Shown in pieces: positions 11,201 through 52,866 of a stretch of DNA of 64,000 bases. The stretch comes from Mobula hypostoma. Lineage: Eukaryota. The first letter of the stretch is position 1. Each line of letters starts with the position of its first letter. The position numbers and the translations under genes are program-made. The DNA is taken from NCBI RefSeq assembly GCF_963921235.1, contig NC_086097.1, positions 166,968,001-167,032,000 of the forward strand. The letters are read 5' to 3'. The notes beneath the pieces are model-generated. The model worked only from the letters and a program-made list of their open reading frames with translations, did no database searches and had not been told where the DNA came from.

Positions 11201-13171
11201 AAACACGAGGAAATCTGCAGATGCTGGAAGTTCAAGCAACACACATCAAAGTTGCTGGTGAATGCAGCAGGCCAGGCAGCATCTCTAGGAAGAGGTACAG
11301 TCGACGTTTCAGGCCAAGACCCTTCGTCAGGACTAACTGAAAGAAGAGCTAGCAAGAGATTTGAAAGTGGGAGGGGGAGGAGGAGATCCAAAAATGATAG
11401 GAGAAGACAGGAGGGGGAGGGATGGAGCCAAGAGCTGGACAGGTGATTGGCAAAAGGGATATGAGAGGATCATGGGACAGGAGGCCCAGGGAGAAAGAAA
11501 AGGGGGGGGGGGGAAGCCCAGAGGATGGGCAAGGGGTATAGTGAGAGGGACAGAGGGAGAAAAAGGAGAGAGAGAAAAAGAATGTGAGTTTATAAATAAA
11601 TAACGGATGGGGTATGAGGGGGAGGTGGGGCATTAGCGGAAGTTTGAGAAGTCAATGTTCATGCCATCAGGTTGGAGACTACCCAGATGGAATATAAGGT
11701 GTTGTTCCTCCAACCTGAGTGTGGCTTCATCTTTACAGTAGAGGAGGCCGTGGATAGACATATCAGAATGCGAATGGGACGTGGAACTAAAATGTGTGGC
11801 CACTGCGAGATCCTGCTTTCTCTGGCAGACAGAGCGTAGGTGTTCAGTGAAACGATCTCCCAGTCTGCGTTGGGTCTCGCCAATATATAGAAGGCCACAT
11901 TGGGAGCATCAGACGCAGTATATCACCCCAGCCGACTCACAGGTGAAGTGTCGCCTCACCTGGAAGGACTACCTGGGGCCCTGAATGGCGATAAGGGAGG
12001 AAGTGTAAGAGCATGTGTAGCACTTGTTCTGCTTACAAGGATAAGTGCCAGGAGGGAGATCAGTGGGGAGAGATGGAGGGGGGGACGAATGGACAAGGGA
12101 GTCGCGTAGGGAGCGATCCCTGTGGAAAGCGGGGGGGGGGAGGGAAAGATGTACTTAGTGGTGGGATCCCGTTGGAGGTGGCGGAAGTTACGGAGAATAA
12201 TATGTTGGACCCGGAGGCCGGTGTGGTGGTAAGTGAGGACCAGGGGAACCCTATTCCTAGTGGGGTGGCGGGAGGATGGAGTGAGAGCAGATGTGCGTGA
12301 AATGGGGGAGATGCCTTTGACAGATGGGTTTGAGAGAAGAGTTGATGGTGGAGGTAGGGAAGCCCCTTTCTTTAAAATAGGAAGACACCTCCCTCGTCCT
12401 GGAATGAAAAGCCTCATCCTGAGAGCAGATGCGGCGGAGACGGAGGAATTGCGAGAAAGGGATGGCATTTTTGCAAGAGACAGGGTGAGAAGAGGAATAG
12501 TCCAGATAGCTGTAGAGTTCATAGGCTTATAGTAGACATCAATAAATAAGCTGTCTCCAGAGATAGAGACAGAATGACCTAGGAAGGGGAGGGAGGTGTC
12601 GGACATGGACCAGGTAAAGTTGAGGGCAGGGTGGAAGATGGAGGCAAAGTTAATGAAGTCAACAAGCTCAGCATGCGTGCAGGAAGCAGCGCCAATGCAG
12701 TCGTCGATGTAGCAAAGGAAAAGTGGGGGACAGATACCAGAATAGGTTTGAAACATAGATTGTCCCACAAAGCCAACAAAAAGGGAGGCATAGCTAGGAC
12801 CCATATGGGTGCCCATAGCTGCACCTTTAGTTTGGAGGAAGTAGGAGGAACCAAAGGAGAAATTATTAAGACCAAGGACTAATTCCGCTAGACGGAGCAG
12901 AGTGGTGGTAGAGGGGAACTGATTGGGTCTGGAATCCAAAAAGAAGTGGAGAGCTTTGAGACCTTCCAGATGGGGGATGGAAGTATATAGGGACTGGACA
13001 TCCATGGTGAAAATAAAGCGGTGGGGGCCAGGGAACTTAAAATCATCGAAAAGTTTCAGACCGTGAGAAGTGTCACGAACACAGGTCGGAAGGGATTGAA
13101 CAAGGGGGGATAAAACCGTGTCGAGGTATGCAGAAACGAGTTCGGTGGGGCAGGAACAAGCTGAGACAATA
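11201..13171 (-). mobile_element. 5'-truncated Penelope-like element (RT plus GIY-YIG endonuclease, frameshifted)
   Basis: RT motifs IVSACSCPTE, FTMDVQSLYTSIPH, GAAMGTHMGPSYA and YIDD. GIY-YIG segment GVIYCV*CSQCGLLYIGETQRRLGDRFTEH at about 11835-11930. 11-bp TSD CTTCCCAACTC at 11190-11200 and 13172-13182. Confidence 0.92.
11299..11334 (-). ncRNA. Minimal type I hammerhead ribozyme motif
   Basis: Minus strand reads AGUC-CUGACGA-A-GGGU(CUUG)GCCU-GAAAC-GUC/GACU: core CUGANGA and GAAA, stem I AGUC/GACU, stem II, palindromic ACGU stem III, GUC cleavage triplet. Confidence 0.8.
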
Positions 13172-15045
13172 CTTCCCAACTCCTTGTATTCTTTTTTCAG
13201 AACTTCCTCACTTTTTCTACCCATGTTGTTGGTATCAATATGTACCACAGCTTCTGGTTGCTCACTCGCCCTTTTCAGCATATCGTGGACGCCTTCAGAA
13301 ACATTGCGGACCCTGGCACTTGGGAGGCAAACTACATTCCACGTTTCTTTTTCACGTCCACAGAATCGCCTGTCTGTCCCCCTGACAATAGAGTCCCCTA
13401 CTACTGCTGCCGTCCTCTTCAGTTCCCTACCCTTCTGAATTACAAGGCCAGACTCAGTGCCAGAGGCCTGGCTGCTGTTGCTTCTCCCAGGTAGGTCTTC
13501 ACCAAACCCCCAACCCCCAACAGTACTCAAAATGTATTCTACAGTACGTCTTTTTGAGGGGGACAGTCACAGGGATGCTCTTCACTGTCTGAGGTTCTCC
13601 CTTCCCTCTCCCAACGGTCACCTATTTATCTTTTTCCTGTAGCCTTGGGGTGACTATCTGCCTGTAGCTCCTGTCTATCACTGCTCCACTTAACAGGCTG
13701 AAGGTCATCGAGCTGCAGCTCCAGTTCCCTAACACGGTCTCTAACTTCAGCATCTTTACTGTTGTTTTATTTGTGAATTGAATTTGCTCATTCCTAGTTA
13801 CCCTCACAAAATTGTGGTGACCTGCCTTCTTGAATGATTGAACCCTACTGTAGAAAATATTTCCCGAGATTTAAAATCACGAGCTCCAAATTTTTGACAC
13901 AGCAATGTTGAAGAAACCAAGATGCTTTTCCAAATCATCGTGGCCTGTGATTGGGAAGAGAAATTTAAAGTAGCCATGTTACCATCCATGACTTTTGCAG
14001 GTTAAGATGTCTCTCTGAATTGTTTATGAATGTTGCACACTATGGTTGAAATATGTAAATATTAATATATTAATGGTGTAGATGTGTCACATTAAGAAAG
14101 ACAAGGGTTTTATGAAATCTGGAGATAGGATAATTGATCTGACAGTCCAGTTGGCCGGGATTATTGTTAATGATATATTAAATAGATACGAAAAACTGGA
14201 ATGACTCAACACCACTGGAGATGGACCAGTGGTGTGGGTTCGGTCGTCAAGGAGTTGGGGTTCAATATTATGAAAATGATAATTATAATTATGTTCATCA
14301 TTATAAATAATAATATAGTTCATTATAAATAACTAATCATTGGGAAGAAGAATTTTAAAAAACCATGTTTTTATTGACAACTTATGTAGGTCAAGATAGC
14401 TCTCTGAAATGTTTATAAATGTTATACACTCTAGCCACGGTCTGTCATTGACAGAAGTGAAAGGCTGAATTATCTGAATGCTAGTCAAACAAATAGCTTT
14501 CTTCTGGATAACGTCCAGATTCTTGAATTGTTACAGCTGCGTGAAATAGTGCAACAACTACTTACATTTAAATAGCACTTTAAATGTAGAAAAATGTAAA
14601 AGAAAAAAAAAATCGGACTCTAAGCAGTGAACCAAAAGCTGGGTCACAGAGAAGATCTTAAGCAGCAGTTCTAAGGGGGAAAGAAAGTAAAGAGGTAGTG
14701 AGAGGAAAGCAGAATGACTGCTGGAAATCTGAAATAAAAACAGAAAATGCTGGAGATACACAGCAGGCCGGGCAGCATCTGTGGAGAAACATATCCAAAC
14801 CTTTCATCAAAATAAAGGAGTGATAAGTATATAATCAGAAGTGGAGAAGCAGAGAGTCACAGACAGAGGAAATTGCAGAGGAGAAGCCCCTTAAGGATCC
14901 AAATTTTAAAAATCATGACTATGTTTTAACCAGGAGCCCTCAGGACAGGTGACCTTGTTGTGGCTGGAATTTGTCATGACATTGCCATGAAGATTGGATG
15001 GCTCCATAAACAGAGACATGAACAAGAAAATCTAGTGAGGAATTA

Positions 15046-16581
15046 CAGGTGTCCCCCGCTTTTCGAACGTTCGCTTTACGAAACCTCACTGTTACGAAAA
15101 ACCTACATTAGTACCCTGTTTTCGCTTTCAGAAGGTGTTTTCACTGTTACGAAGAAAGGCAGCGTGTGATAAAAAAATCAGTGCGTGATAAAAGGCAGCG
15201 CGTGCCCCGAGCAGCCGCTCTCCCCTGGATTCGGAACGGCATTGCTGAAACACGTTGCATTGAGCAGCCATTAGCAAGATGAGTTCTAAGGTGTCAGAAA
15301 AGCCTGAAAGAGTAAGGGTGTTACACCTAGCGTAAAACTAGACATAATTAAGCGTTTTGATCGTGGTGAACGAAGCAAGGACAAAGTGAGTTTAGCTTGT
15401 GGAAGTTGACAAAGATGATGTTGAAGAGGTTTTGGCATCCCATGACCAAGAACTGATAGATGAAGAGCTGATGCAATTGGAAGAGGAAAGGATAACAATC
15501 GAAACCGAATGCAGAAAGTGAAGCAACTGCGTGAGGTTTTCGCTGCAATGATAAAGTACGACTTTAATTTTGAAAGGGTACGTAGGTTTAGGAGATATTT
15601 GCAGGATGGTTTGAGTGCTTACAAACAACTGTATGACAGAAAAATGCACGAGGCTCAGCAGTCAAGCAAGCCTTCCACATCAGCCACAGCAGACGACGAA
15701 CCTCGACCTTCGACATCGAGGCAGGCAGTCATAGGAGAAGATGAGCTGCTTGCCCTGATCGACGATGAGATGACACCCCCATGTCTCACCACCCCAACAC
15801 CCGGGCCCCGGACAAATACTGTACCGATTCGCGAAGAACGCAGCGGTAGCCGGGAGGCACACAGCACATCTTTAGGAAAAAGCCAAAATAAACATGCTAA
15901 TTAATTAGGTGCCGCCTAGCATGTAATTGTCGGCCCAGATCAGAGGCGATGCAATCGGCAATCGCCTCTGATCTGCGCCGATGTGCTGTGTGCCTCCCGG
16001 TCACTGCTGCGTTCTTCGGGGCAATGTATCGGGTCAGCGGCCATGAGGGTGGGGGCCACTGCACCACCCAGCCTGCGACGACTCAGTCTAACACACCATC
16101 GTCAGTGTGCTCTGCGCTGTTTTCCCAATTCTGGTAAGTGATACTACACTGTTACATACATTATTTCTACTTTATATAGGCTGTGTATTTTTACGTGTTA
16201 CTTGGTAGATTTGGCAGCTTCATAGTTTAACAGCTACTGGAGAATGCGTTTATGCCAACAGCGCTTGTGTGAGATTTTCTGCTGAGAGCGCTTGCGTGAG
16301 ATTTTCACTACGGAGATCTGTGCAGGCAATCGTTGTAGAGAAGTATTTCTACTTTATACAGGCTGTGTATTTATTATATCATTCCTGCTTTTACTATACA
16401 TTACTATTATTTTAGGTTTTATGTGTTATTTGGCATGATTTGGTAGGTTATTTTTGGGTCTGTGAACGCTCACAAAATTTTCCCATATAAATAAATGGTA
16501 ATTGCTTCTTCGCTTTACGACATTTCGGCTTACAAACCATTTCATAGGAACACTCTACCTTCGGATGGCGGGGGAAACCTG
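15046..16581 (+). mobile_element. Tigger/pogo-like internally deleted DNA transposon
   Basis: TA flanks. Left TIR CAGGTGTCCCCCGCTTTTCGAA; right TIR (reverse complement) CAGGTTTCCCCCGCCATCCGAA. Remnant CENP-B-like N-terminus (TLSVKLDIIKRFDRGE) joined to an acidic C-terminus (EVDKDDVEEVLASHDQELIDEELMQLEEE); no DDE core. Confidence 0.85.
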
Positions 16582-16824
16582 TACTCCAACATCCTTGTAA
16601 ACAGTCTAAAGGTTCCTTAGTTAATCTTGAGCTAATCGTTCAAATATCCAGTACTGGTCAACAGTCACCCTCCTGATGATGACAGTCGTCTGGCAATGCT
16701 AATTCTATTGAAAATTAAGAGGAGAGCTAACACCCCTCTTCTGTTGGAGATGTTTTTGGGTGGCATCAATGACACTTGGGTTTTCACTCTGCTAACAGCC
16801 AACCCAGAGAGTTACTTTGGAAAA

Positions 16825-17138
16825 TTATGAAAGTCTCGCTCCAGAAGGCACAACCTCAGAATAGATGTCCCTTTTGCACAGTGATGAGGAGGAATTTCTT
16901 TACCCAGAGGGCGGCGAATCTGTGGAATACTTTGCCACAGGTGGCTGTGGAGGCCAAGTTATTGGGTATCTTTAAATCAGAGGTTGATAGTTTCTTGATT
17001 AGTAAAGGCATCAAAGGTTACATGCAGAAGGCACAAGAATAAGGTTCGGAGCCAAAATAAATCAGCGATGAATGAATGGTGGAGTAGACTTGATGGACCG
17101 AATGGCCAAATTCTGTACCTATGTCTTATGGTCTTATT
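16825..17138 (+). mobile_element. CR1 LINE 3' fragment
   Basis: RRNFFTQRAANLWNTLP motif followed by the CR1 tail CCTATGTCTTATGGTCTTA. Confidence 0.8.
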
Positions 17139-18278
17139 AGGCTACCATAAAGAAACTGTTGACTATTGGATAAATAGCATATTGTGATTTTCCTCACTTT
17201 TCAATCTGAGATAATATAATTTATAAATGATATGCTGTTCCATACATGAAGCAGAAACACACCCTTTTTTAAATGTCCCTTTGTTTCACCAGCTGTGAAC
17301 AAGCAAGTTTAATGACTTTGAACAGCTTTGCTTACATCACTCAGCAGTGTCAGCATTTTACTTATTAATATAGAACAGGCTGGAGAAAAATGTTTGACAG
17401 ACCACCCTAGTGCCAGGATTTCCCGAGATTATGACAGAGTTCTTCATTATATTGCTGTTTAATCGTTCCAAGGATCGATCACAAAAGTCTTTCACAAATA
17501 TTACCACAGTTTTTTCAGCAACATATAGTCAATCAAATACATCTCTGTTTGGTTAGAATCCTAAACATGAGCATAAAGTGAAGCTTATGTTCACTGTATA
17601 ATACTTAAGTTATCGAAATTACCAGAGTTTCACTTTTAAGTTTTGTCATTCAAGCTATGTGACAAAGCCAATGCCAGTGGCTGAGACTAATTTGTATGCA
17701 GATATTGTCCACTCATAGTGTCTCGCTACAGAAATTGCCCAACCTTGTTTGCTATTGGTATCATTTGTTTCCTCTGCTCTTTACATAATTCTCTGTAAAT
17801 TAAATATATATGCTGTACAATAGAGTCTTTGCTGTGCTCCATCTCTTAAACTACATTTACTGACCACTCCATTAGGTACACCTACTCATTAATGTAAATA
17901 TCTAACTAGCCAATCAAGTGGCAGAAACTCGATGCATAAGAGCATGCAGAAATGGTGAAGAGGTTCAATTGCTCTTCAGACCAAACATCCGAAAGGGCAA
18001 AAACAAAAATTGTGATCCAAGTGACTTTGACCATAGAATGATTGTCATTGCCAGATGCTGTGGTTTGACTATCTCAGAAACTTTGCTGATCTCTTGAGAT
18101 TTTCATGCACAACAGTCTCTAGAATTCAGAGTATGGTGTGAAAAACAAAACATATCCAGTCAACAGCAGTTCTGTGGATGTAAATGCCTTGTTAATGAGA
18201 GAGGTCAGAAGAGAATGGCCAGACTGGTTCAAGGTGACAGAAAGGTGGCAGTAACCAAATAACCGTAAGTACAACTCT

Positions 18279-18779
18279 AACCATGAGGAAATCCGCAGAT
18301 GCTGGAATTTCAAGCAACTCACATAAAAGTTGCTGGTGAATGCAGCGGGCCAGGCAGCATCTCTAGGAAGAGGTACAGTCGATGTTTCGGGCCGAGACCC
18401 TTCGTCAGGACTGACTGAAGGAAGAGCTAGTAAGAGATTTGAAAGTGGGAGGGAGAGGGGGAAATCCAAAATGATAGGAGAAGACGGGAGGGGGAGGGAT
18501 GGAGCCAAGAACTGGACAGGTGATTGGCAAAAGGGATATGAGAGGATCATGGGACAGGAGGCCCAGGGAGAAAGAAAAGGGGGAGGGGGGGAAAAGCCCA
18601 GAGGATGGGCAAGGGGTATAGTGAGAGGGACAGAGGGAGAAAAAGGAGAGAGAGAAAAATGAGAGACAGAAAAAGAATGTGTGTATATAAATAAATAACA
18701 GATGGGGTACGAGGGGGAGGTGGGGCATTAACGTAAGTTTGAGAAGTCAATGTTCATGCCATCAGGTTGGAGGCTACCC
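18279..18779 (-). mobile_element. Penelope-like 3' terminal fragment (about 500 bp)
   Basis: Closely similar to 11201-11685. Imperfect TSD AGTACAACTCT / AGTACAATTGT. Confidence 0.9.
18377..18412 (-). ncRNA. Minimal hammerhead ribozyme motif (stem III variant)
   Basis: AGUC-CUGACGA-A-GGGU(CUCG)GCCC-GAAAC-AUC/GACU. The core is intact; the ACGU palindrome is mutated to ACAU. Confidence 0.7.
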
Positions 18780-21700
18780 AGTACAATTGTGGTGTGCAGA
18801 AGAGCATCAGTGAATGCACAACTCATCCAGCCTTGAAGAGGTTGGGACACAGAAGCAGAAGACCACATATATACACTCAGTAGCCACTTAATTAGGTACT
18901 GAATAAAGTGGCCACTGAGCGTATATTGACTTCAATTCCTAGCAGAACTTATAGAGGAACTGCCCTGGAGCTTCAACAGTCCGGGTTCAATCCCGATGTT
19001 GTTGGTGTGGAGTTTGTACGTTCTCCCTCTGATAGCATTGCTTTTCCCTAGATGCATCTGAGCAAAGATGGTGTTCCAATGCCAGTACAGCTGAACCAGG
19101 AGTGTGGCTGGGTCACTCTGGGTGCTGAAAGGAGAACTTGGGGCCCAGATAGAAGAGATTCAGTGCCCCATACTGCTGGCCCGGATGTGAAGTTGGACCG
19201 CTCTGGACACTGAGCTGATTTGAAGTTGTTGAGAGGGGCTTCGGTCTAGGTGACGGAATCTGGGCTCGGATTGAGTTGCTGGGTGGCATGGTCCAGGTTC
19301 GGAGCCTTTCTCAGTAGCCAGGTCCTAGTATGAGGTAAAATACATTGTTCAAACAATTTAAAGGCCAACCCAGATCGGAGGCGAAAGCCAATTTCCGTCA
19401 CTCTCTGTGACCTTCACTCCTCTCTCCAGGGCACTGAGCCGTTTGCTGTTCTGTTGTTTGGTCAATTCAAATCCTGGCCCAGATTGACTGAAAAGACAAT
19501 GTGTTGGTCAAGAACGAGATCTGATTTCACTCATTCTCTGCGATGATCATCTTCATGGCACTGAGGCTATGAAAACTGCCTGGCTACTGTGCTTCGTGCC
19601 TGCTAATATGATAAACTGATAAGGGAGGCTTTGTGCCTATTCCGGGCAGTACCAGGGTTCAGATCTGAGAACTCAGCTTTGGTTCGGAACGCTGTTGCTC
19701 ACTTCAATTATTTGCATGACTTTTTTTCTTTCTCTTGCGCATCGAGTGTTGGTCTTCTATTTTTATTCTTTTTTTCTTTAATTGGGTTCTTTCGGGTTTC
19801 TTGCTTTGTGGCTACCTGTGTGCAGGCAAATCTCAAGGTTGTAAAATTTATACAGTTTTTGAGACCAAATGTACCTGAATCTTGAATTACTATAGGACAA
19901 TGCAGCACAGAAGGTGAAGCACAGTATCCAATTTGTCAACAGCAAGTACCCGTGGGTAACAATAATGACCAGATTTACTTTTTTAAGTGGCAGAAAATGG
20001 TCGGCAGCATCTGTGAAGCAAGGAGAACTGGCGTTTCAGTTTGACGATCTATTAGATTTTGATTTCTAGGAACTTAATTTTAATTCTGTCTCCAGTCTAA
20101 CCTGTAGAGCAATCTCAGCATTTTCTTTATTTAATTACAATGGAGTGCTTAACGTAAACTTCAGACAGTTTATTGTGTGCTTTGGTTAATAGTTGGAACC
20201 ACTGGAAACATAGTGCATGAGAATTTACATAATTATTTCTGCTAAAGCAATGTAAAAGCAGTTTAAGTTCTATAACTTATAAACAACATTTTTATATCCA
20301 GTATCACTTTCGTTTACTTGCAGACAGAGGTAAAAGATCTGAGAATAGATTATAAAATCAGTGTTCAGTGCCAAAGTGCCACAACATCTGGAATAAAACC
20401 ATTAAAGAAATAGAATCAGGAATAGTCTGATCCTGTACTGCAATTCAATATCATTTGCCAGTCCTCAACGCCATTTTCAACTGATCACTGATACCATTAA
20501 GGTTTGACTTGCTTTGTTCTTCAGTTTTAAAATACTCTTCTAATATGAATGCATTCTTTCTGCTTCACTGGGGTCGTTTGACAGTAGAACTCCAGGCTGC
20601 CAGTCTGGGTTTGGCTAAAAGAGAAGGAACAAATGCTGAGAGATAGGCCCTTAGTTGTAATTGTTCACTATTGCAGACTACTACAAATAATTGTGCACTT
20701 TGAATATGAAGGAATGGGCATAAAAACACATTAGCGCTCCGGGGATCTGAGTTCAATCCGGAACCTGGGTGCTGTTTGCATGTTCAATCTGTGTCTGTGT
20801 GGGTTTCTTCCAGGTGCTCCACATTCCTCCCACCTCTTGAAGATATGCCGGGAAGTTAACTGACAAGCATAATTCATCCCTTGAAGTAAATGATTAATAG
20901 AACCAAAAGAAGTTGATAGACATATGAGTTAGAATAAGTTCCAAGGCTTTAGGCGAAAGGGGAACAGAGAGAGAGAGACTGCAAATGAGTGAAGTACAGA
21001 GCAATTTAAGTGCTCTAAGGCAGGAATCATGAAGTGTTACCTAGTAGATCGAACCACGATGTTGCACATTAGCCTTTATTCCAAAGGTGTCCACCTTCAG
21101 CAGCAAGGAGGTTCTGTTATAGTTTTATAGGTGAGGTCACAGCTGGAAGGCTGTTCATAGTTTTGGTCCGCTAACTGGGAAAAAGGAGCACTGGAGAAGG
21201 TCTCAGTCTAATTCTGGGATGGAAGTGTGGCTCCAAGTAGCTGTCTGCATCTGACAGCAACCACATTCTAGTACACTGCTTCGACAGGCGGGCTAAACCA
21301 GATGAGGGCAGCTGGTGGCCTCATACCCCGTTGAGATAGGGACATGCTTGTCCAAGCTTATGAAGTCAGCTCCTGCGGACTGGGTGGATGAGATCTACAG
21401 TGAGATCCAACGACTAGGAAGGTGGTTCTGTAACGTTCCATGGAGAGAAAAGGGCATGACAAGACATAAAAAAACATCATGGTCATCTTCTGCAACCAAG
21501 GAAGACCCCAGTTTGTGACACATGTTTGTACTATTGGATCCGGAATTCTAAGGTCAAGAGAGTGGAAATGCCCCAGTGCAACAGCATTTCCCTTTTCAAA
21601 ACTCTCCTCCACAGGTTTCTTGTCATCGTTGGACACGATGGACAACCACCAAAAAAAAAAATCCAATTGTCCACCTAATTCTAGACATTACTTTGTCAAA

Positions 21701-21814
21701 ACCTGAAATTTAGAAAATATAATACTGCTGTATTATTCTACTCATTTTCTCCTCATTGGACAACTTTCTCATCCTAAGAATTAATTTAGTGAATGTTTAG
21801 ATTTGAAGTCAGAG

Positions 21815-23130
21815 TGTTATACAGCATGGAAATAGGTTCTTGGCCCCAAATGGTTAATGTAATCAAGATATCTACCTGAGATAGTTATTGTCCATCTGAG
21901 CATATTCCTACATTTCCTACAAGACCCATATCCCTTGAGGACTTTCCTATCCATGTACCTGTCCAGATGTCTTTTAAACTCTGTAATTTTACCTGCTCTG
22001 CAGCTTCTTCTGGCACCTGCTTCCACATAGCCACCACCCTGTGTCTCTCTCAGGTCGTTCTTAAATATTTTCCTTTTCACTGTAAATGTATGCCACTTTC
22101 CTAACCTAGGAGGAAGACGGTGACCATCCACCTCATCCACTACCCCCTGAAGATTTTATATGTAACCCACTCACCAGGGCTCGTATACAAACTTGGTTCA
22201 TTAGCTAATTCTCTAATAGCCACCTGACTCAGCAGTGGGAAGGCCACCTTTCATAAGCAATGTGCATCTATGGGTCGAAGTGATTTGGGGTTCAACCGAA
22301 CAGGACGGTCGTGATGTTCCAATTAAAGAACACTGGTTGTAGAAAATGCTGTGTAAACACTGCTCACACACAATTATTGGTCGCCAAGAAATGACAGGTG
22401 GTACACCAGCATAAAATTATAAGTATATTCATCAATTTTCAAATTTATCAAACAGTTAACAGGAAAAGAAAGGGAAAAGGGTCCATTACAGTTAAACCAG
22501 TTCAATGTGCACATAAATGTTTGAGCTCGTTACTGAAGTAGTCGAGTATATCATTGTACTTTCGCACTGAACCCACATTCTGCATGATAGGCACAAGCCA
22601 CAGTCCGAACTGCTCTCGAAGATCATCTCGAATGAACTGGTTAACTCAGGAATATTGGCACTTCCTCCTTGGAACCATTAATCTTTCCGCACAAAGCCCT
22701 TCTTACAACTGGGTCTCTCCTTTGGGCAGCATTCTGCTACATCGTCCCTTGTGCCCTGCTCCAGTGATCTCACCAAAGGACGCTAAACTAGACTACTGTC
22801 CTTCAAAAATCTGATTCCGCCCAGCTCTCTAGAATCTTCTCTCACATCTCACTGGGCAGAAAGTTACAACACGTACCCAGACAGTCTTGATTGGCTGACA
22901 CAACATTCCTAAGTTGAGCAACATGGCTCCTCAGCTTTAGCCAAAGCCAAAATACCATTAACTATCAGGACACTGCCAAAATAAAAACATGTAATGGCAT
23001 AGCAGTAGAAATCTTACCCAGGGCGGTACATATGTAAATCTATAAGTCACATATCAACCTCCTATATTCCAGGGAAAATGTCCCAGGCTATCCATCCTGT
23101 CCTTATATTTCCCAACTCCTCCAGTAACAT
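21815..23130 (-). mobile_element. Old CR1 3' fragment split by a solo LTR
   Basis: FKRHLDRYMDRK..GYG motif (ORF 21817-22140). CR1-like sequence resumes after 23030. Confidence 0.7.
22161..23030 (-). mobile_element. Solo LTR (870 bp, Gypsy-type)
   Basis: TGTA...TACA termini, flanks TATA/TATG. The reverse complement shares GAGCTC..GTGCACATT.AACTG..ATGG.CCCTTTT with the LTR at 7662. Confidence 0.8.
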
Positions 23131-24444
23131 TTGCATTACACCAGAAGATTTGTTGCATCCTGCAAGAGGAGTACACACCAGGACTCAAGGTGTGGAAATG
23201 CACAACAGCTTCTGCATGTGAGTTGCTTCTGCATCAAACTCTTTTCTAAATTCCTTTGAGCAACTCAATTTTGCCACATTTATGCTTTGCTGAAAAGCCA
23301 CACACAGTAATACTCTGAAACACATCCTTGATGGGAGAATAAATGCTGAGATGAACATCCTTGCAAGAGCAGGACATTCTCCTCTTCCATATGTCTCACT
23401 ATCTCAGTAAAGCAGCCAGCATTATCAAAAACCTCACCTACCCCAGATATCGTCTCTTCTCCCCTCGTCCATTGGGCAGAAGATACAAAAGACTGAAAGC
23501 ACATACCACCAGGCTTATGGGCAATTTCTATCCATTACTGTAAGACAATTGATAGGTTGCTAGTGGGATAAGACGGGCTCTTGATCTCACAATCTATCTC
23601 AATATGATCTTGCACCTTATTGTTTTCCTGCTCTGCATTTTCTCCACAGCTGATACATTTTGTTCTGCATTCTGTTATTATTTTACTTCAACACACCATA
23701 TAATCATTTGATCTGTATGTACAGTGTGCAAGACATGCATATTATATCTTGGTACATATGACAATAATAAACCAATTCCAATTCCCAAATCTTCCCAATA
23801 TCAATGCTTAATGACATCATTGCTTTGCATTCATTAGCAGCATGGCCTGGAAGATAAGAATGACTTGTTAATTGCAACCAGTGTTGGATGACTCATGCAG
23901 GAAGTTAACTGGACAAATTACAGAGGACAGCAGGCACTGAAGTACTTGTGAGTGGAAAAATCACATTTATAATCAAGGACTAATTTGACATGTCAAGAGT
24001 AAATTCATACCGCAGCTGTAGTGTTGTGCTCAGCCAGAAGCAGATATTGAATGAACTGAATTCTGTAGCATACATAGCTCATGCATGTTTATAAATATCC
24101 GCACAGCTTCAATTCTTATAATTCAGAATAGTACAGTGGACATGTGGTAACTAGGAGTACTCCACAAGGTCAAGTATCAGAATGAATGATTTTTGATCAA
24201 CATACAAATAACTGGAGACACAAAATAATACAGTTACTGGAATCTAGACCAAAAATGAAAAAAAAAAACTTCTGGAGGAAGTCAGTAAGTCAGGCAGCAT
24301 TGGAACTGAGAGCAGAGAGAGAAGATGGCTGATATTAAGAGAGGGTAAGAGCTGAGGTGAGGCCAGTGGATGTGAGGAGGTGTGAGGAGGATCGAGGAGG
24401 GGGTGGAGTAGGAAACAGAGGCAGGTGGATGATAGATAAATTCT

Positions 24445-26400
24445 ATCATATTATGATCAGTCTCCTGAGGGTTCTTTTACCTTAAGCTCACTAATCAAAT
24501 TTGGTTCATCATACAACACCCAATCCAGAATTGCCTTTCCCCTAGTAGGTTCAACCACAAGCTACTCTAAAAAAACACTTCATAGATATTCTACAAACTC
24601 CCTTTCTTGGGGTACAGCACCAACCTGATTTTTCCAATCTACCTGCATATTGATATCCCCTATGACTATCATAACATTGCCAGTTTTGTCTTGCATTGTA
24701 ATTTGTATCCCACATCCTGGCTAATGTTTGGAAGCCTGTATATCATTCTCATCAGGGTCCTTTCCCCCTGCAGTTTCTTAACTCTACTCAGAAGGATTCT
24801 ACATCTTTCTATCCAATGTCACATCCTTCTAAGGATTTTATTTCATTTCTTACCCATCAGAGCCACCCCAACCTCTCTGCCTACTCTTTGATGCAATGTG
24901 TATCCTCGGATGTTAAGCTCCTTATTATCATCTTCTTTTACCCACCATTCTGTGATGCCCACAACATCATACCTGCCAATCTCTAATTTTGCTACAAGAT
25001 CATCTACCTTATTCCATACATTGCGTGTGCATTCAAACCTAATACTTTCAAGTCCTGTATTCGCCACCTTTTCGATTTTGTCTCCTGTTACACTGCAACT
25101 CATCCCACTGACTGCAATTTTGACCTGCCATCTGCCAGTCTTTCCTGACAATCTCACAACATACCACCTCTGGTTGTATACCAACTGCTCTATCCTCAGC
25201 CCTACCACTCACATTCCTATGCCCCGGCCAAAATTAGTTTAAATCCTTCCCAACAGCTCGAACACACCTGCCCGCAAGGATATTGGGTTCAGGTGTAACC
25301 CTGTCCTTTTATAAAGGTTTGACTGGATGATCCAGAAATTATCCAGAAATCTCAAACCCTGCCTCCAGCACCAATTTCTCAGCCATCCATTCATCTGCTA
25401 TACCATTCTAAGTCTTACTCTCACTGTTATGTGGTACAGGCAGCGATACAGAGATTATTACCCTGGAGGTCCTGCTTTTCAGCTTTCTACCTAACTCCCT
25501 GTATCCTCTCTTCAGGACCTCCTCCTTTTTCCTACCTATGCTGTTGGTACAAATATGTACCACAACTTCGGGCTCTCCACCCTCCCCCTTTAGAATGTTG
25601 TCAGTCTGATCTGAGACATCCCAGTCTCTGACACACGGGCGGTACCATACTATCCTGGTGTCTCTTTCATGTCCCCAGAATCTTTTGTCCACTTCTCTAA
25701 CTATGGAATCCCCTATTATTTCTGCACATTCTTCTCCCTTCCCTTCTGAGCCACAGAGCCAGACTCACTGCCAGAGACCCAGTTGCTGCAACTTCCCCCC
25801 GCTAGGTCATCCTACTGTTGGATACCCCAACAATATCCAAAGCGGTGTATTATTGTTGAGGGGAATGGCAATGGGGCACTGTGCACTGGCTGCCTATTCC
25901 CTTTCCATCTCCCAGGTACCTGTCTCCTACCTCCCTATAGCTCCTATCTATCACATCCTCATTCTCCCATATGAGCTGAAGGACATCAGGCTGCAGCTCC
26001 AGCTCCTTAGTACGGTCTCTAAAGAGTTGTAGCTCAATACACTTTGCGCAGATGTAGTGATCAGGAAAACTGGAGGTCTCTCAGAGATCTCATATCTCAC
26101 ACAAGGAACATACCACTAACCCTCACATAAGAAACATACCACTTACTCTGGATCTATTTTCATTGCACTAGCTATGGACTAATAGACAAAGAATTAGAGA
26201 CAAAAAAATACATGCTAGAAACTTTCTTAGATCCTCTGTCTGTTCTTGTCCAATACTGTCTACATCAACAATAGCCGCTCCGCTTACACCTCGCTGCTTT
26301 TTATTGGCCTATGCCGAGTGTCTAAGAGATCGTTATGATTGCAGCTAGCTGAAAAGTTCTAGAAGGCTCCGAGCTCATTTTAAACCTTGGAGACTTTCAG
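24445..26400 (-). mobile_element. Degenerate CR1 5' portion (ORF1 zinc finger/leucine zipper and esterase; start of endonuclease)
   Basis: CSLC...YICAKCIELQL..KELEL at about 26000-26115, PEVVVHICTNSIG (ORF 25408-25692), YDVVGITEWW..ELNIRGY (ORF 24843-25208). Confidence 0.8.
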
Positions 26401-27350
26401 CTAGAAGGTGGGAGTGAAGAATCTGGAAAGAATGCCAAAAGGAGACTGGACAGAGGTAGGGACAATGGCAACTGTTTTAGTTGGAGATGAATGGACGGAA
26501 GCTGGTTCAAGGCCCATAGGTTACAGGTTTAACATTTTGGAGTGAATACATGGGCAGTAAGATAAAAAAAATTATTTTATACAGTGGGTGTTTTGACCCA
26601 GACATCATACTCATAAGAGTGCTAAGAGATAATTAATTAGGACTTTAAAGAGGGAACTGGATGGATACTAGGGAGAGAATAATTTGCAGCACCCATAGGG
26701 AAAATGTGTAGAGGAAATGCGGCTGACAGGAGTGCATAGCTAGGAGTTGGAACTTCATGATCTGATACTTAATTTTTCAGTTAATCACATATTAAAATTA
26801 TAAGTATTCCTTACAGCAGTTGCTGCGTAGAACCTGATTGATTAGAATCTGAAAAAGTATAGACAAAAGTCAACTAACACACTAAGCATGCCTCGATATG
26901 ACACAATCCACCTGCATTCTGAACTATTTTGCAACTGACCCACTACTATGAGCTCCAACTGATGCAATTTCTCAAAAGATCTTCCAAAATAAGCCAATTT
27001 AAGGAGATTGCCTTGAACAATATCAATGGTCATCTTCCACAGCTTGGGATGGGATATCTCATCTGGGAAGGAACTCATTCAGCTATGATCATATGCCACA
27101 TTTTCCATACCCAGTGGTAACTATTCCTGAGGACGACATTTCTCCAAGTATTTCCTGGCTTCTAATGTAAATATATATGGTCAAAAGGTGCACTGATGTC
27201 TTCTAATATAGTGTCTCTCAGACTCAAGTAACTTATCTAATCAGACCAAAACTAGGCTTTCATTATTGTCTCCAATAAAATCTTCAAGTTCCTGTGTTCG
27301 TCTTGATAACTCAAGAGACTTTAAAGCAAATGCAATTTCTATACTTATTC

Positions 27351-27509
27351 AAACAACAGGAATTCTGCAGATGCTGGAAATTCAAGTAACACACATCAAA
27401 GTTGCTGGGGAACACAGCAGGCCAGGTAGCATCTCTAAGAAGAGGTACAGTCGACGTTTCAGGCCGAGACCCTTCTTCAGGACTAACTGAAGGAAGAGTT
27501 AGTAAGAGA
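27351..27509 (-). mobile_element. 159-bp Penelope-derived mini insertion carrying a hammerhead
   Basis: Matches 11201-11360. Perfect 14-bp TSD TTCTATACTTATTC at 27337-27350 and 27510-27523. Confidence 0.9.
27449..27484 (-). ncRNA. Minimal type I hammerhead ribozyme motif
   Basis: AGUC-CUGAAGA-A-GGGU(CUCG)GCCU-GAAAC-GUC/GACU. The only core change is at the variable N7 position. Confidence 0.8.
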
Positions 27510-27853
27510 TTCTATACTTATTCGTTATGCAGGGTAAAAGCTGTTATTTATTGCCTTGCTCTAAATGCCCTAAAGTGTATTGGTTACGATTAAAGACTAA
27601 GACTAGCTTTAAACATTGAAACATACAATGAAATGAGTTGTTTGCATCAAATCAAACCTGCAGGATCTACTCAGCAGCCCATAATTGTTGCCGTTCTTTG
27701 GGCACCAACTTAGCACGCCCACAACTCACAAACCCCAACCCATCTTTGGAACATGGAATAAACTAGAGTACTCTGAAGAAACCCATGCAGTGACGGGGAG
27801 AAGGTGTAAGCTCCTTACAGGCAGTAGTGGGAAGTGAACCCTCATCGATGATC

Positions 27854-28242
27854 GTGTCCAAGATATCCTGAAGTGGGAGGGTGAAGAGCCAGAGGTCCTG
27901 GTACATATAGGTACCAATGACATAGGTAGGAAAAGGGATGAGGTCCTGAAAGAAGAATATAGGGAGCTAGGAAGGGAGTTGAGAAAAAGGACCGCAAAGG
28001 TAGTAATCTCGGGATTACTGCCTGTGCCACGCGACAGTGAGAGTAGGAATGCGATGAGGTGGAGGATAAATGCGTGGCTGAGGGATTGGAGCAGGGGGCA
28101 GGGATTCAAGTTTTTGGACCATTGGGACCTCTTTTGGCGCAGGTGTGACCTGTACAAAAAGGACGGGTTACACTTAAATCCTAGGGGGACCAATATCCTG
28201 GCAGGGAGATTAGCGGGGGCTACTGAGGTGACTTTAAACTAG
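27854..28242 (+). pseudogene. CR1 ORF1 C-terminal SGNH/GDSL esterase fragment
   Basis: Reads VLVHIGTND ... DGLHLN, the SGNH block III and V motifs; 5' truncated. Confidence 0.85.
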
Positions 28243-28247
28243 AATGG

Positions 28248-32699: not shown

Positions 32700-32709
32700 T
32701 GTGTGTTGT

Positions 32710-32748
<39 letters not shown>

Positions 32749-32770
32749 TGTCTGTCTGTCTGTCTGTCTC
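32700..32770. repeat. Compound microsatellite (GT)n(CTGT)n
   Basis: Read directly from the sequence. Confidence 0.95.
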
Positions 32771-42072: not shown

Positions 42073-42109
42073 TCCAACTGTGTGTCATAGGAAGGGATAT
42101 ATAACACTA

Positions 42110-42718
42110 CAAGGGGTGATTGATAAGTTCATGGCCTAAGGTAGAAGGAGTCAATTTTAGAAAACCTAGCACATTTATTTTTCCTACATTTACACACTTA
42201 GTCCACTGGTCGTGGAGCATATAGATCCCTTCTCTGTAGAAGTCAGCGCCTTGAACCTCAAGAAAGTGGTCCACAGCAGGGGTGATTGATAAGTTTGTGG
42301 CCTAATGTGCAAGGAGATGAGTTATTAACTTCAAACTTTCTGCATTATCACTCAAAGGGTTGAACTGCACGTGCATGTGCATGTAACAAGAGCTGTATAA
42401 CTTGTCTCTATCTACCTTAGGCCACAAACTTATCATTCACCCCTGCTGTGGACCACCTGGATGTGTAAGATGCTCTCGTTAAATGCACGTGCAGTTCAGC
42501 TCTTTGAGTGATTATGCAAAGTTTCAAGTTAATAACTCATCTCCTTCTACCTTAGGCCACAAACTTATCAATCTTCTACAAAGAAGGGATCCGTATGCTC
42601 CATGACCACTGGACTAAGGTGTACATGTAGGAGGGGACTATGTTGAAAAATAAATGTGCTAGGTTTTCTAAAATTGACTCCTTCTACCTTAAGCCGCGAA
42701 TTTATCAATCAGCCCTCG
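42110..42718. mobile_element. Fold-back mariner-derived MITE
   Basis: TA flanks at 42108-42109 and 42719-42720. About 130-bp inverted arms starting CAAGGGGTGATTGATAAGTTC. Both arms carry a mariner-like C-terminus (FYKEGI.MLHD.WTK); the right arm ends GDYVEK*. Confidence 0.85.
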
Positions 42719-42869
42719 TAAATACTGGACCTTAGCTGCCGATTCCAAATCTACTATCCAGATCAAGAGCCATAACATGAACTCTAACTCACCTGTAACT
42801 AAAAATAGTTAAGCTAAAGAAGGTGTAGGTTTTCTATATTTCTAAAAGTAACAAAAACTGTATACTTAC

Positions 42870-42995
42870 AATTGAATCCTGGCTTGATTTTCCTATTAAC
42901 CTGTAGGCTATATATGGTAATTTGAAACAAGGCATGAAGCAGCAGAAAGGTGAGGCTTGTGAAACACAGGGTTTTCAGTAAGCGGCCTGTATGTC
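42870..42995 (-). CDS. PIEZO2: Internal coding exon (exon 3 equivalent) of mechanosensitive ion channel PIEZO2
   Basis: Acceptor TTTTTATTCCAG|, donor |GTAAGT, 126 nt, phase 1/1. Translates (G)HTGRLLKTLCFTSLTFLLLHALFQITIYSLQVNRKIKPGFN(C), versus recalled human PIEZO2 GHTGRLLKSLCFISLSFLLLHIIFHITLVSLEAQHRIAPGYNC. Missing from the ORF track. Confidence 0.9.
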
Positions 42996-45900
42996 CTGGA
43001 ATAAAAAAGATCGATAATTAGTTCCTATGCAAGAAATTATAATTAAATTAAATTAAAATAGCCAGACAAGTGTGATATTGACATTGCAGACAGGAACACT
43101 GAATTTTGTACTACTTAGCTTTGCTTTCTTCTAGTAAAGGTAACAGACTTTTACTCGGTCTGTCATTAACATTTTCCTGATTGACATTTTCCCCCATCTC
43201 ATTTTGTATGTACATGATAGAGAATTTTTTTTTTTTTTTTTAGTAAGTATGACATTGGCAAGGCATGTGTTTATTGGGTCTTGCTAGACATTTCAGGCAT
43301 CCTTCATTAAGCAGTGACTTATTTAGTTACAATCGGCTGGGTTTCGTAAGGCTGACACACTTCTATCCTAAAGCATATTAGTGAACCAGATAGTTGACAA
43401 AGTAACCCAAACCTTCCATAGTCTGTGTGGTGTCTGCAAATGGCTGAGGACCCAATGAGGAGACATATTTATTATGTTGGCTCCATTATTCCAATCCTTC
43501 CTCTAACAGTATCTACAATATTTGGCTTCTCCAGCCACAATTCCAATATTGTTTATTTTCTCTCTCCCTTCCAATTTCCTCCATATAAATTATCTGCAAT
43601 TAACAATCCCTCAGCAGCCTCTTTCAGCCAGCACCACCAACACTTGCATCATTCAGATCATAAAGTCTTTCCAAGACTCCCCCTCATTCCCCCAACTGCA
43701 CCTTTCTCGCGTGCCTCAGCTCCTCTGCAATTTTAAACATGTTTGATTTCCAACTTCTCTCAGTTTTAATGAAAGATGCCCTCCAGTCAGTAAGAGGACA
43801 TCTGTGGAGAGAGAAACAAAGTTAACAGAGCTAATGGTTTAGGGTGATGTTTGGATTTTCCAGTTAAGATTAACAAATCGTCATTCACTTGAAATGCTAA
43901 CTTTATTTCTTTCTCTCCAGATGCTGCTTGATCTGCTGAGTGTTTCCAGCACTTACCACTTATATCCCAGACTTTCAACACCCGCCAGTTTTTGAATTGT
44001 CAACATGAAATATTAACTGTTTCTTTATCCACAGAATTTGACTGACCTCTTGAACTCTTCCAACATTTTGTTTTCCTTACCAGAAAGTATGATAAATGTA
44101 GCTCTAATTGTGCCTTTTAAAATAGAATTTGATAAATATTTAAAGGAAAGAGAACTGTATAGGGCTATAAAGAGGTGAAAATGGATCTAACTGGATTGAT
44201 CTAAAATGGCTGTTACGTAACAGTAGAAATTACTTCCTTTCTGTAATAAATCTGCTCCTAAATCAGCAATCCCTGATCTTAAAGAGGTTTATATGGAATA
44301 ATGGGACTATAGAGAAGCAGGACTGTTGTTGGAGCAGAGATCAGAAAGGCATAGCAAGACCCTGAGTGAAGCTAATGAAGAGGAAATCTTCCCATGTCAC
44401 AAGCAACAGGAAGCAAAGGACAGAGATTTTAAAAAATAAAAAAAGAAACAGAGAAATTATTTTTGGTTGCAAGTTTTTATGCCTTCGATCGTAGAGTCTG
44501 CAAAGGCAGCCGAAGCAGATTCAATAGTAACATTGAAAAGGGAATCAGATTAATAATTGAAAAAGAAAATAAATGAGAAAAGGGTAAGGGAGTGATCCCA
44601 TTTGGAAAGCTTTACCAGAGAGCTGGCACAGAATAACAATCTTCGGTGCTATCTGATATTTATTATCTCTATGATTCCAAAACATGGAACATATCATTTG
44701 ATTTTTACACAACTTTAATGAGGTAAATTTTGAATATAAATTCCTAGTCAAAATTAAAAGTTGTTTGTCATGGCAGCTCAAGGTATATCACAGGAAACCA
44801 GAATGACGGAATGTGTATTTTCTTTTCATTTTTTTTCTCTATCAACGTAAGAAACTAAAGAAACAATTTTGTCGGAAGAGAAACACTTGCTAGTTTCTTC
44901 AGAAATTAAAAGATCAGAATTGGTCTTTGTCCCTTGGTATGCATGGATAAGAAGACCTCAAGCTGACTTTTTGAATTATGACCCTATTTGAAAATCAGTC
45001 TGTAAATAAATGAACTCAGGAGAGGAATGGATCTCAGTATGATGACTTCTGTAGTTCAATAGTTGCTTCTCCACTTTCTTGGGCTGACATATCAAGGTTA
45101 TCTAATTGGCTAAATCCCTGGAGCACTGCTCACCTATGTCAGGTCATCAAAGGTGCAAAATAAACATAAATCTTTCTTTCTGAAAATGGCCAATCTTTTG
45201 GCTTGGTATTTAAGAGAGGAATGTTGGCCAGTAAATCAAGCCGAAGTTATTCTTAGAAGACTGCCAACTGAATCAAATATGACATTTATTGCACACTTTC
45301 CTCTTTGATGATACAGTCTTGCACTGAAATGTCAACCTAGCTTTGGCATTCAGTTCCAGGGCTGTGTTTTACCAATGGAGCCAAGAGATGTTTTCACAGC
45401 TGCCTTAAAGTTATCTATATTTTTTTTCTCTAAATAGGAAGGCAAGGTATTCATATTTTTTAATTATTATTTTACATCAACTCAAAAGCATTTAGTAAAT
45501 ACAAATTTGGCAGAAGTATGTCTCACACAGGTACTACTATGAAGGATTAATTGGACCATACAAGTTAACAAAACGAGGTAGGGTTATGTCAACTGGAAAC
45601 TGCTAGATTTCTCAAGCTTGAGATTTCAGATTTTCACCTCTTTAGGGATCATTTCCTTTTATTACTTAATAGGTTTTGTTTGTATGTTTCACATATCTTC
45701 TTAGGACACAAGGCCATTTGGTCCATTCCTGCTATGTTGGCTGTCAGCACAATTCTGTTGGTTCCATTGCCCTACTTATTTTCTTGAAACCTATACCATT
45801 CTCACATGCAGGTCCGCTCCAACTCAATACTTCAGGCACCCACCTACACTAAGGGTAGTTAACATTGGCCTGGTACTCAGTGCACCTGAAGAAAACCAGT

Positions 45901-46750
45901 ACAGACACATGGAAATGAACTACAGTAGCTCTATACAGACAGCATCCAAGGTCAGGTCTCTGGAACTGTGCCATTTTGCTTCCATTGTTTCCATTCTCTG
46001 GTGTTCAACAGAATGAAGGAAGATTTTATAGTGGTATATAAAATTACAAAGGGCATAGATGCACGCAGTCTTTTTCTCCTTGGGTTGGGTGAGACAAGAA
46101 CTAAAGATAATAGATTTGGGGTGAAATGTGAAATATTTAAGGGGAATCTGAGGGGAAATTTCTACACTCAGACATTGGTGTGTGTGTGTGGAATGAGCTG
46201 CTAGTGGAAGTGGTAGTTGTGGGTTCAACTGTAACATTTAAGAGGAGTTTGGAGAGGTAGGTGCATAGATGAGAGGGATATAATCCATGTGCAGATGGAT
46301 GGCACTAGGCAGAAGACCAGGCCAGCATGGGCTAGATGAGTAGAAGGGATTGGTTCTGTGCTCTATGATTCTGAGTACTCTACCATTGGTATCTTTTGGG
46401 CTATCACTGGCCAAAAGCTCAACCGTGGCCACAAGAGCAGGTAAAAGGTCAAGTCAAGTTTATTCTCGTATGCACAGGTATGATTAGTTTCAAGCAAAAC
46501 CAAAGAAATCACTTTCATAGATTCAGACAACACAACAGAACATAAATCATAAAACAAAACATATATTATACAACACAGTGAAGAAAAAGACCATACAAAA
46601 CAATATATTCATGAGAAAAATATAGAAACCAAGCTCACGATAGTGCAAGAGCGGGTCCCTAGTGTTCTGTTGCTGAGGTAGGTAGGATTAGGAATGTGCA
46701 AGTCAGTTCAAGAACCCGATGGCTGGAGGAAAGAAGCTGTCACTGAACAT

Positions 46751-46954
46751 AAACAAGAGAAAACCTGCAGATGCTGGAAATCTGTGCAATATACTCAAAA
46801 TGCTGGAGGAGCACAACAGGCCAGGCAGCATCTAGGAAAAGGGTACAGTCGACGTTTCAGGCCGAGACCCTTCTGACGTTTCGGCCTGAAACACCGACTG
46901 TACTCTTTTCCCAGATGCTGCCTGACCTGCTGAGTTCCTCCAGCATCTTGTGTG
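46751..46954. mobile_element. Inverted pair of Penelope terminal-repeat fragments
   Basis: About 65-bp inverted arms centred near 46870. 13-bp TSD TGTCACTGAACAT at 46738-46750 and 46955-46967. Confidence 0.85.
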
Positions 46955-47589
46955 TGTCACTGAACATGCTGGTGTGGAATTTCCAGCTTCCATACTACTA
47001 CCTTCTGAAGGATAATGAGGTTCAGGGCAAAAAGTGCTGGGCATTCCAGCAATGCAGAGATCTTTTAATAGAAGTTAGAAAGAAACAATATAGTGTGATT
47101 GAATTCCAAGCCAAGAATGGCTTGTGAAATATAAATTGAAATGTTGAAAATTAAATTGTAATTACTTTGAAGATATTAAGAGGAGCTCACAGGGTACATA
47201 AGAACTCGAAGTAGACACTAGAGTAGGCCAATCAGTCCCATGCTCTGCTATTCAATAAGATCAAGGCTGTTTTTCTCTATCTCAGCACCACTTACACGGT
47301 AACTGCTTCACATATGACCACAAGAAACTGCAAAGAGTTGTGACACAGCTCAGCACATCATGGGAACCAGTTCGCCGTTATGGACTCTGCCCATATTTCT
47401 TGCTGCCTCAGTAAATCAAATAGCTTAAAGCTCCTAGCCACCCCAAACATCCACTCTTCTCATCAGGCAGAAGATACAAAAGCACATACCACCAGGCTCA
47501 AGGACAGCTTCTATCCCACTGTTACTGGTATCTTGTACAATAAGATGAACTCTTGACTTCATAAGCTATTTTGTTACGATCTTGCACTG

Positions 47590-48253
47590 AGGAGAGGAGA
47601 AGATGGCGGTGTGATGCAATGTGCAGCAGCCACTCCGGTGGTGATGTCTGTTAACTGTCAAGTAGGGTGCCGTGCACAATCCTGATTTGATGGAGACAGA
47701 CGTGAGAGCACGGAGGAACATCTGGTGAAACTTCTGAAATGCCTGCTTCGCTGCTGCTGCTACTGTGTGATCCAGAATCTCCAGAGGGGAAGGCCCCGAG
47801 TCCTCGGCTTTGCTTGTTGCTCGGCGGCCGGGGCGGGGTCGAAGCGCTCGGCAGAGATGGTGCTCTGTGCTCGGTGTCGGAGACTCTAAGTTTTTGGGCG
47901 GACTCAGAGTCGGCTGTGGTCGGGTGCTTCCAATGCATCGGCAAGTTTGCGGCGCTGGAGGTTCATGGCAGGGAGAGTTTCTCCCTTCTACTGTCTGCAT
48001 GAGATGATGGGGCTATCGGGACTTTGAGACTTTTTTTTTTACCGTGCCCATGGTCTGCTCTTTATCAAATTACGGTATTGCTTTGCACTGTTGTAACTGT
48101 ATGTTATAATTATGCGGTTTTTGTCAGTTTTAGTCTTGGTCTGTCCTGTGTTTCTGTGATATCATACTGGAGGAGCTTTGTATCATTTCTTAATGCATGC
48201 ATTTCTAAATGACAATAAACGAGGACTGAGTGTCCTCATAATCTAATCTAATC
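47590..48253 (+). mobile_element. About 660-bp non-coding retroposon (non-autonomous LINE-like), copy 1
   Basis: GC-rich 5' end AAGATGGCGG; 3' AATAAA then (CTAAT)n tail. An inverted second copy lies at about 50000-50800. Confidence 0.7.
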
Positions 48254-50148: not shown

Positions 50149-50280
50149 AACAACAGGAATTCTGCAGATGCTGGAAATTCAAGCAACATACATCAAAGTT
50201 GCTGGTGAACGCAGCAGGCCAAGCAGCATCCATAGGAAGAGGCGCAGTCGACGTTTCAGGCCGAGACCCTTCGTCAGGAC
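50149..50280 (-). mobile_element. 132-bp Penelope-derived mini insertion beginning at the hammerhead
   Basis: Perfect 13-bp TSD TAATTATAACATA at 50136-50148 and 50281-50293. Matches the PLE terminus at 11201-11333. Confidence 0.9.
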
Positions 50281-50281
50281 T
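50246..50281 (-). ncRNA. Minimal type I hammerhead ribozyme motif
   Basis: AGUC-CUGACGA-A-GGGU(CUCG)GCCU-GAAAC-GUC/GACU; all core positions intact. Confidence 0.8.
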
Positions 50282-52862: not shown

Positions 52863-52866
52863 TTTG

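Follow-up and report, generated by a model that had tools for sequence, protein, structure and literature searches.

Hammerhead-bearing ends of a Penelope-like element in PIEZO2 introns of Mobula hypostoma

Four minimal hammerhead motifs around a PIEZO2 exon

The window analyzed here is a stretch of 64,000 nucleotides (nt) of the Mobula hypostoma genome (assembly GCF_963921235.1, contig NC_086097.1, positions 166,968,001 to 167,032,000 of the forward strand), numbered from its first letter. It contains one coding exon of PIEZO2 with intron sequence on both sides, in which an initial annotation had placed four minimal hammerhead ribozyme motifs on the strand of the exon. A pattern search of the window recovered all four, each 36 nt long and on the minus strand; we number them as copies 1 to 4 by rising coordinate. 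Each ends its own 5′-truncated insertion, 135-1,971 bp long, of a Penelope-like element (PLE). The most likely explanation, to which we give a probability of about 0.88, is that these are hammerhead-bearing ends of an abundant PLE that inserted independently into the PIEZO2 introns and are carried there as inert passengers, transcribed uncut and removed with the intron.

The exon (42870..42995, minus strand, 126 nt) has AG...GTAAGT borders and matches residues 55-95 of PIEZO2 at E 2e-10, compared with E 6 for PIEZO1; following mammalian numbering, we take it to be exon 3. The next PIEZO2 exon lies ~41 kb beyond the window start. Since the exon is on the minus strand and Piezo domain matches on the same strand flank the window (C1:167.12 to 166.65 Mb), all four motifs run in the sense direction of the pre-mRNA, with copy 4 in the intron preceding the exon and copies 1-3 in the intron following it. 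The genome holds three Piezo paralogues, at C1:166.65-167.12 Mb, C2:226.13-226.34 Mb and C55:46.42-46.64 Mb.

All copies share one layout: AGUC (helix I), CUGANGA, an extra A, GGGU-CUYG-GCCY (helix II), GAAA, C(G/A)UC and GACU (helix I). CUGANGA and GAAA are present in four of four, and the helix I (AGUC/GACU) and helix II (GGGU/GCCY) pairings are possible throughout. In copy 1 (11299..11334), whose topology was read from the sequence, the predicted scissile bond is 11303/11302. Copy 3 (27449..27484) has A at N7, and copy 4 (50246..50281) is identical to a 36-mer that is highly repeated in the genome (see below). These three copies keep the cut site GUC and the palindrome ACGU (15.1-16.1); copy 2 (18377..18412) carries A for G16.2 and therefore reads ACAU, with AUC at the cut site and a broken stem III palindrome. 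Since A15.1, C15.2, G16.2 and U16.1 are adjacent, helix III is loopless and can form only between two molecules, in agreement with the initial assignment to the minimal type I hammerheads of PLEs. The G10.1-C11.1 pair closing helix II is retained in copy 2 and replaced by G10.1-U11.1 in copies 1, 3 and 4, which is a variant and not a loss of the fold.

A loose core pattern matched the window four times, against a mean of 1.36 in shuffled sequences, and 7 of 100 shuffles also reached four. Despite this modest excess, chance is not at issue, because the four copies are 87-91% identical to each other across 135-510 bp and thus belong to one repeat. An Rfam covariance-model search of the window, which had been suggested as a check, gave 13 matches at E≤10, none of them to a hammerhead family. 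A profile search of the window also returned 13 matches, two of them on the plus strand.

Truncated insertions of an abundant element

The longest insertion (11201..13171, minus, 1,971 bp), which bears copy 1, comprises a broken reverse transcriptase (RT), a Cys linker, a GIY-YIG-type region, the 3′ untranslated region (UTR), the hammerhead and a tail. It is flanked by an 11-bp target-site duplication, sits inside a decayed long interspersed element (LINE) and is, at the protein level, 91-92% identical to the best-matching relatives in the genome. Copy 2 belongs to a truncated end of ~505 bp (18275..18781, minus) with the last codons, 3′ UTR, hammerhead and tail, for which we found only a 7-bp candidate duplication. 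Copies 3 and 4 lie in stubs of 159 bp (27351..27509, minus, 14-bp target-site duplication) and ~135 bp (50149..50283, minus, 13-bp duplication), the latter beginning at the front edge of the hammerhead; for copy 4, the host repeat has a paralogous site near 48100-48112 that is empty. The window copies are thus single stubs, 7-23 kb apart and with their own duplications, rather than the tandem array of short hammerhead-bearing units that defines a retrozyme.

Contigs of four related organisms, from runs of genomic size, were aligned to 17700-27800; repeats swamped these alignments, and none of the 15 joints listed (of 3,063) marks an empty site. One contig of the organism X20 breaks off at 27350, right at the border of copy 3, and leaves 121 letters unaligned, a weak hint that this insertion may be absent there.

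Decayed or broken copies had been noted near 1170, 46850 and 61770, and all were found. The first (1104..1201, minus) is a heavily decayed hammerhead with its tail and the last (61705..61801, minus) a decayed one of an older subfamily, also with its tail. The middle one (46747..46990) is a head-to-head fold-back of two PLE ends, with a minus-strand arm (46747-46874) and a plus-strand arm (46878-46990), both truncated within the hammerhead and without a complete core. The profile further matched a weak fragment on the plus strand (43918-43951).

Genome-wide, the exact 36-mer of copy 4 occurs 16,386 times in forward and 16,500 times in reverse orientation (32,886 in total; control 0), and a 34-place degenerate pattern with intact core finds 52,767 copies on both strands. 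A search of the genome with the RT fragment of copy 1 returned 47,710 first-look candidates, of which 150 were scored and 10 were fetched, picked for long open frames (L207-L216). In six of these ten, a hammerhead-bearing repeat (pseudo-long terminal repeat, pseudo-LTR) lies in direct orientation on both sides of the open reading frame (ORF). Locus L211 has two hammerheads 3,515 nt apart with an RT/GIY-YIG-type ORF between them; its frame, at 1,043 codons, is among several in the family that exceed 1,000. By eye we read in it the RT motifs DKG, DVQSLY and YIDD, and Pfam RVT_1 matches at E 5e-5, below the curated cut-off. A GIY-YIG-type motif (GVIY...LYIGET) with Cys and His residues, also read by eye, suggests an endonuclease; searches with the intact ORF gave no endonuclease match in Pfam and no match at E≤1 in the PDB. 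Between RT and the predicted endonuclease lies a CX4CxxC linker, CKRNKCYTC (P0001). As described by Craig et al. (2021, PMC8557442), a CX2-5CxxC linker at this place marks the Neptune type; judged by this motif alone, the element would be a Neptune-type endonuclease-positive PLE.

Counted from the start of the hammerhead motif, the first likely ATG comes ~170 nt downstream. Two 3′ end points, near profile columns 165 and 203 and thus ~38 nt apart, recur in L207-L216 and in the gene intervals described below, a distance that matches the 30-40 bp tail of PLEs. Many PLE copies form head-to-head pairs.

Orientation, core decay and folding of the intronic copies

Strand and decay were analyzed in 11 gene intervals (1.864 Mb) comprising the three Piezo genes and eight spectrin-repeat genes, with strands taken from Pfam matches. 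The profile has 370 matches there, of which 77 score at least 100 bits and are called young. As intact we counted cores with ACGU and at least three helix I pairs. Across the 464 kb of PIEZO2, eight intact cores are sense and eight antisense (five and eight outside the window), and the 11 genes together have 24 sense and 19 antisense intact cores (p 0.54; sense fraction 0.40-0.71). The picture is the same for all 370 profile matches (191 sense, 179 antisense) and for solo intact copies after dropping 86 loosely defined head-to-head pairs (16 sense, 13 antisense). For the degenerate motif, the genome average, used in place of an annotated intergenic control, predicts 14.15 copies per strand, against 15 sense and 12 antisense observed. 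The all-sense pattern, whose statistical weakness the initial annotation had itself noted, therefore holds within the window and vanishes over the whole gene (8 of 16 sense) and the gene sample (24 of 43). Of the 43 intact cores, 26 have G10.1-U11.1; the most amplified subfamily closes helix II with this pair, though G-C has been described as highly conserved there.

Among the 77 young matches, non-CpG differences affect 11 of 623 core sites and 39 of 2,795 flanking sites (p 0.46), and the core is intact in 21 of 36 sense and 19 of 30 antisense copies. Genome-wide, copies that differ from the common 34-mer at a single place number 215 for the catalytic U4 and 220 for a loop U (p 0.85). Core and non-core positions decay alike, so inserted cores are neither preserved nor preferentially destroyed; cores mutating as fast as their flanks had been named in advance as an outcome that would speak against the proposed effect on PIEZO2. 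Conservation of the core above the neutral rate, as in RECK-type domestication, was not seen in this family-wide, rather than per-copy, test. In older subfamilies the motif is retained while the sequence on either side diverges, which suggests that selection acts on it in the source elements.

The passenger reading is carried by the separate truncated insertions, the one hammerhead per pseudo-LTR, the balanced orientation within genes and the neutral decay of the core. The initial annotation had itself rightly warned that the motifs may be neutral relics. We propose that copying of the element's RNA begins ~100-140 nt downstream of the hammerhead, runs through the uncut motif and usually stops early, leaving stubs in either orientation. 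Of 43 young matches with a 5′ end inside the profile, 26 have that end in a 14-nt stretch at the hammerhead's front edge and another 4 have it near the cut site. All four window copies span the scissile bond, as they must if their template was uncut or had been re-joined. By analogy with described PLEs, the ribozyme probably serves the element's own RNA and needs the element's protein. An intronic stub, predicted to be folded shut, without a near partner and probably without the element's protein, would then go uncut in vivo and be degraded along with the intron.

Nearest-neighbour folding predicts such a shut form. Copies 1 and 4 alone are predicted to form a rod in which the core GACG pairs with CGUC (−10.0 kcal/mol, against −6.0 for the open form). 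With 60 nt of upstream and 100 nt of downstream sequence, the predicted probability of helices I and II is at most 0.05 in copies 1-3, because an upstream pyrimidine stretch pairs with CUGA and GAAGG. In the 20 copies that matched a pattern including the upstream junction, the median predicted probability of helix II is 0.04 in the native context, 0.90 without the upstream sequence and 0.49 with this sequence shuffled; these copies are mutually related and so amount to nearly one observation.

Several results weigh against the passenger reading. The folding model includes neither Mg2+ core contacts nor proteins, and copy 4, which has no upstream hairpin, is predicted to form helices I and II with a probability of ~0.55 in the 60-nt upstream context, falling to 0 with 150 nt upstream. 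As the known PLE dimers also cleave weakly, we treat folding as supporting evidence only. Spacing is no bar to pairing, since a rough polymer estimate with a flexible tether gives effective concentrations of 1.1 µM at 3.5 kb, 0.38 µM at 7 kb and 0.11 µM at 16 kb; a separation of 7 kb is only ~3-fold worse than the element's own 3.5 kb, and we therefore reject distance as an argument against dimers. Further, each of the four intact cores in the intron of copies 1-3 is sense, and together they belong to a run of five sense cores, where a run of at least four sense among 16 random cores has a probability of 0.40. The sample of 11 genes is blind to a small bias. Finally, in a first tally core CpG sites differed less often (29 of 287) than non-core ones (69 of 435, p 0.027). 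Protection of core CpG was rejected after one subfamily-variable CpG (model columns 135-136) had been dropped, which brings the non-core count to 37 of 285 (p 0.30).

Among the alternatives, the one that survives best, though we consider it improbable, is that sense copies are cut now and then, either when the element's protein is made and attaches to the stem-loop tail beside the hammerhead, or when two copies meet in a nascent intron. The cut would be slow, splicing would tolerate it and the cost would be small; in the passages of PMC2995048 that report it second-hand, introns cut by a slow hammerhead still splice, whereas a fast ribozyme blocks splicing. Neutral decay fits harmless cutting. 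Further points in favour are the ~100 nt of tail kept downstream of the cut site in every window copy, the 0.1-0.4 µM estimated for copies 7-16 kb apart, and the ~47,710 first-look RT candidates with some open frames of more than 1,000 codons. An anole PLE hammerhead is protein-assisted according to the relevant part of PMC11167929, yet according to the same part no anole RNA-seq reads end where the ribozyme would cut, and binding of a protein to the Mobula tail is suggested by analogy only. For the second route, the active dimer is predicted to lie 4-12 kcal/mol above two monomers in ten of ten pairings and far above an inactive duplex, and the core is predicted to be sequestered in copies 1-3.

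A bolder version of the protein-dependent route, which we regard as very improbable, would have tens of thousands of latent intronic ribozymes held shut by a hairpin in read-through RNA until Penelope protein is made, binds the tail and frees the core, whereupon host pre-mRNAs, that of PIEZO2 included, would be cut. Were it true, nascent transcripts across the genome would be nicked whenever the transposon became active in a burst, and such cutting would give retrotransposons a new means of harming or controlling the RNAs of their host.

An effect on the host could also arise through splicing rather than cleavage. At 11337, 18415 and 27487 (minus strand), a branch-point-like sequence, a pyrimidine tract and CAG precede helix I by 2 nt, with TACTAAC in copy 3; in older subfamilies, the AG after the tract is that of helix I. 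In copy 2, the acceptor-like CAG and a donor-like GTGAGT (18322) lie 92 nt apart (18414-18323, minus), and the candidate cryptic exon between them would shift the frame and contain the whole hammerhead. These acceptor-like sites echo the Drosophila virilis Penelope, an intron of which ends at the 5′ end of helix I as described in the relevant passage of PMC4209133. Their pyrimidine richness may, however, simply belong to the 3′ UTR of the element, and copies bearing an acceptor are not depleted in sense orientation (17 sense, 10 antisense, p 0.25). Of 24 sequencing runs, all present as contigs, we guess 18 to be RNA, and we aligned the contigs of four such runs to the full unit L215; they cover the hammerhead, in a form where RNA ends are not visible, and none of the 15 listed of 295 joints is a GT..AG joint. 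We hold a host effect by this route for slightly less credible still. In the material X9, one adapter-flanked fragment, a single molecule that we did not count, starts at the front edge of the motif.

Least credible of all is the original proposal that the sense copies pair through ACGU, cut the introns co-transcriptionally and are kept by selection to shape PIEZO2 processing, for which the local run of sense copies and the precedent of type I hammerheads conserved in introns of RECK and other amniote genes (PMC6155905, in part) could be cited, and against which stand the even orientation over the gene (8:8) and the gene sample (24:19), the neutral core decay, the already broken copy 2, the youth and multiplicity of the insertions, and the absence of helix III and tertiary loops from the Mobula motifs, in contrast to the canonical and conserved amniote ones.

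For PIEZO2 itself, being host to passenger ribozymes would have little consequence. The wider point is that a vertebrate genome tolerates intact-looking hammerheads at ~15 per Mb. In the sampled introns nothing indicates that selection either favours or removes them, which fits ribozymes that are off outside the element's own ribonucleoprotein.

The remainder of the window is rich in other repeats. A decayed Ty3/Gypsy-type LTR retrotransposon (52265-57950, plus) has LTRs 91-97% alike, a zinc knuckle and an integrase core. A near-full-length LINE (27838-31045, plus) with endonuclease and RT domains has one frame break, and decayed relatives of it lie near 6750-11160 and 24440-26020. Another LINE fragment (60314-61396, minus) has 360 codons open, with an RT followed by a match to Pfam ALKBH8_N. 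Two further features are probably small transposon remnants: a short near-perfect hairpin (18869-18926), which resembles mir-9256 weakly and scores under the Rfam threshold, and a set of nested inverted repeats (42108-42720) that follows closely on the downstream side of the PIEZO2 exon.

Comparison with known systems

The motif class is already known. Minimal hammerheads (min-HHRs) were defined in the pseudo-LTRs of metazoan PLEs (Cervera and De la Pena 2014, PMC4209133), and the parts of that paper used here report thousands of solo copies (4,000 in coelacanth, 9,000 in Xenopus), no cleavage of monomers and low cleavage of dimers. The Mobula motifs share with these the type I topology, the 4-bp helix I, the extra nucleotide between A9 and 10.1, the missing loop 3 and the palindromic 15.2-16.2; their elements share the single motif per pseudo-LTR, ~3-3.5 kb apart, and the prevalence of solo copies or opposite-strand pairs. 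They differ in a higher copy number, a helix II of 4 bp and the G10.1-U11.1 pair in 26 of 43 sampled cores. The main text of the paper, as far as it is drawn on here, names no cartilaginous fishes, and its supplements may list such motifs. A literature search combining hammerhead, Penelope-like and shark found no shark element, 'shark' there being the name of a ribozyme, and one on intron strand bias of Penelope hammerheads found none.

Another close system is PAc of Anolis (Frangieh et al. 2024, PMC11167929), to whose assayed hammerhead we liken one known here from its sequence. In the sections of that work considered, cleavage by the PAc hammerhead requires the element's protein, and insertion in vitro does not depend on the hammerhead. 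Both elements have the hammerhead near the ORF start, genomic copies that span the cut site and two 3′ end points ~38 nt apart. PAc, however, is a member of the Penelope/Poseidon clade with an ORF that begins within stem II, whereas the Mobula ATG lies ~170 nt past the motif start.

Non-LTR retrozymes (Li et al. 2026, bioRxiv 10.64898/2026.07.22.740005), of which one of nine natural dimers cleaved according to the passages cited, likewise carry PLE-derived type I hammerheads. They form short tandem arrays and are reported there to be excluded from Xenopus introns, whereas the Mobula copies are dispersed truncated PLE ends that are not depleted in the sampled introns.

The conserved intronic hammerheads of amniote RECK, CTCL and DTNB, as treated in the relevant part of a review (PMC6155905), are also of type I, lie in host introns and are thought to derive from retroelements. 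They are canonical, few and conserved; in contrast, the Mobula motifs are minimal, and the single family that they form, with its more than 50,000 copies, shows neutral decay.

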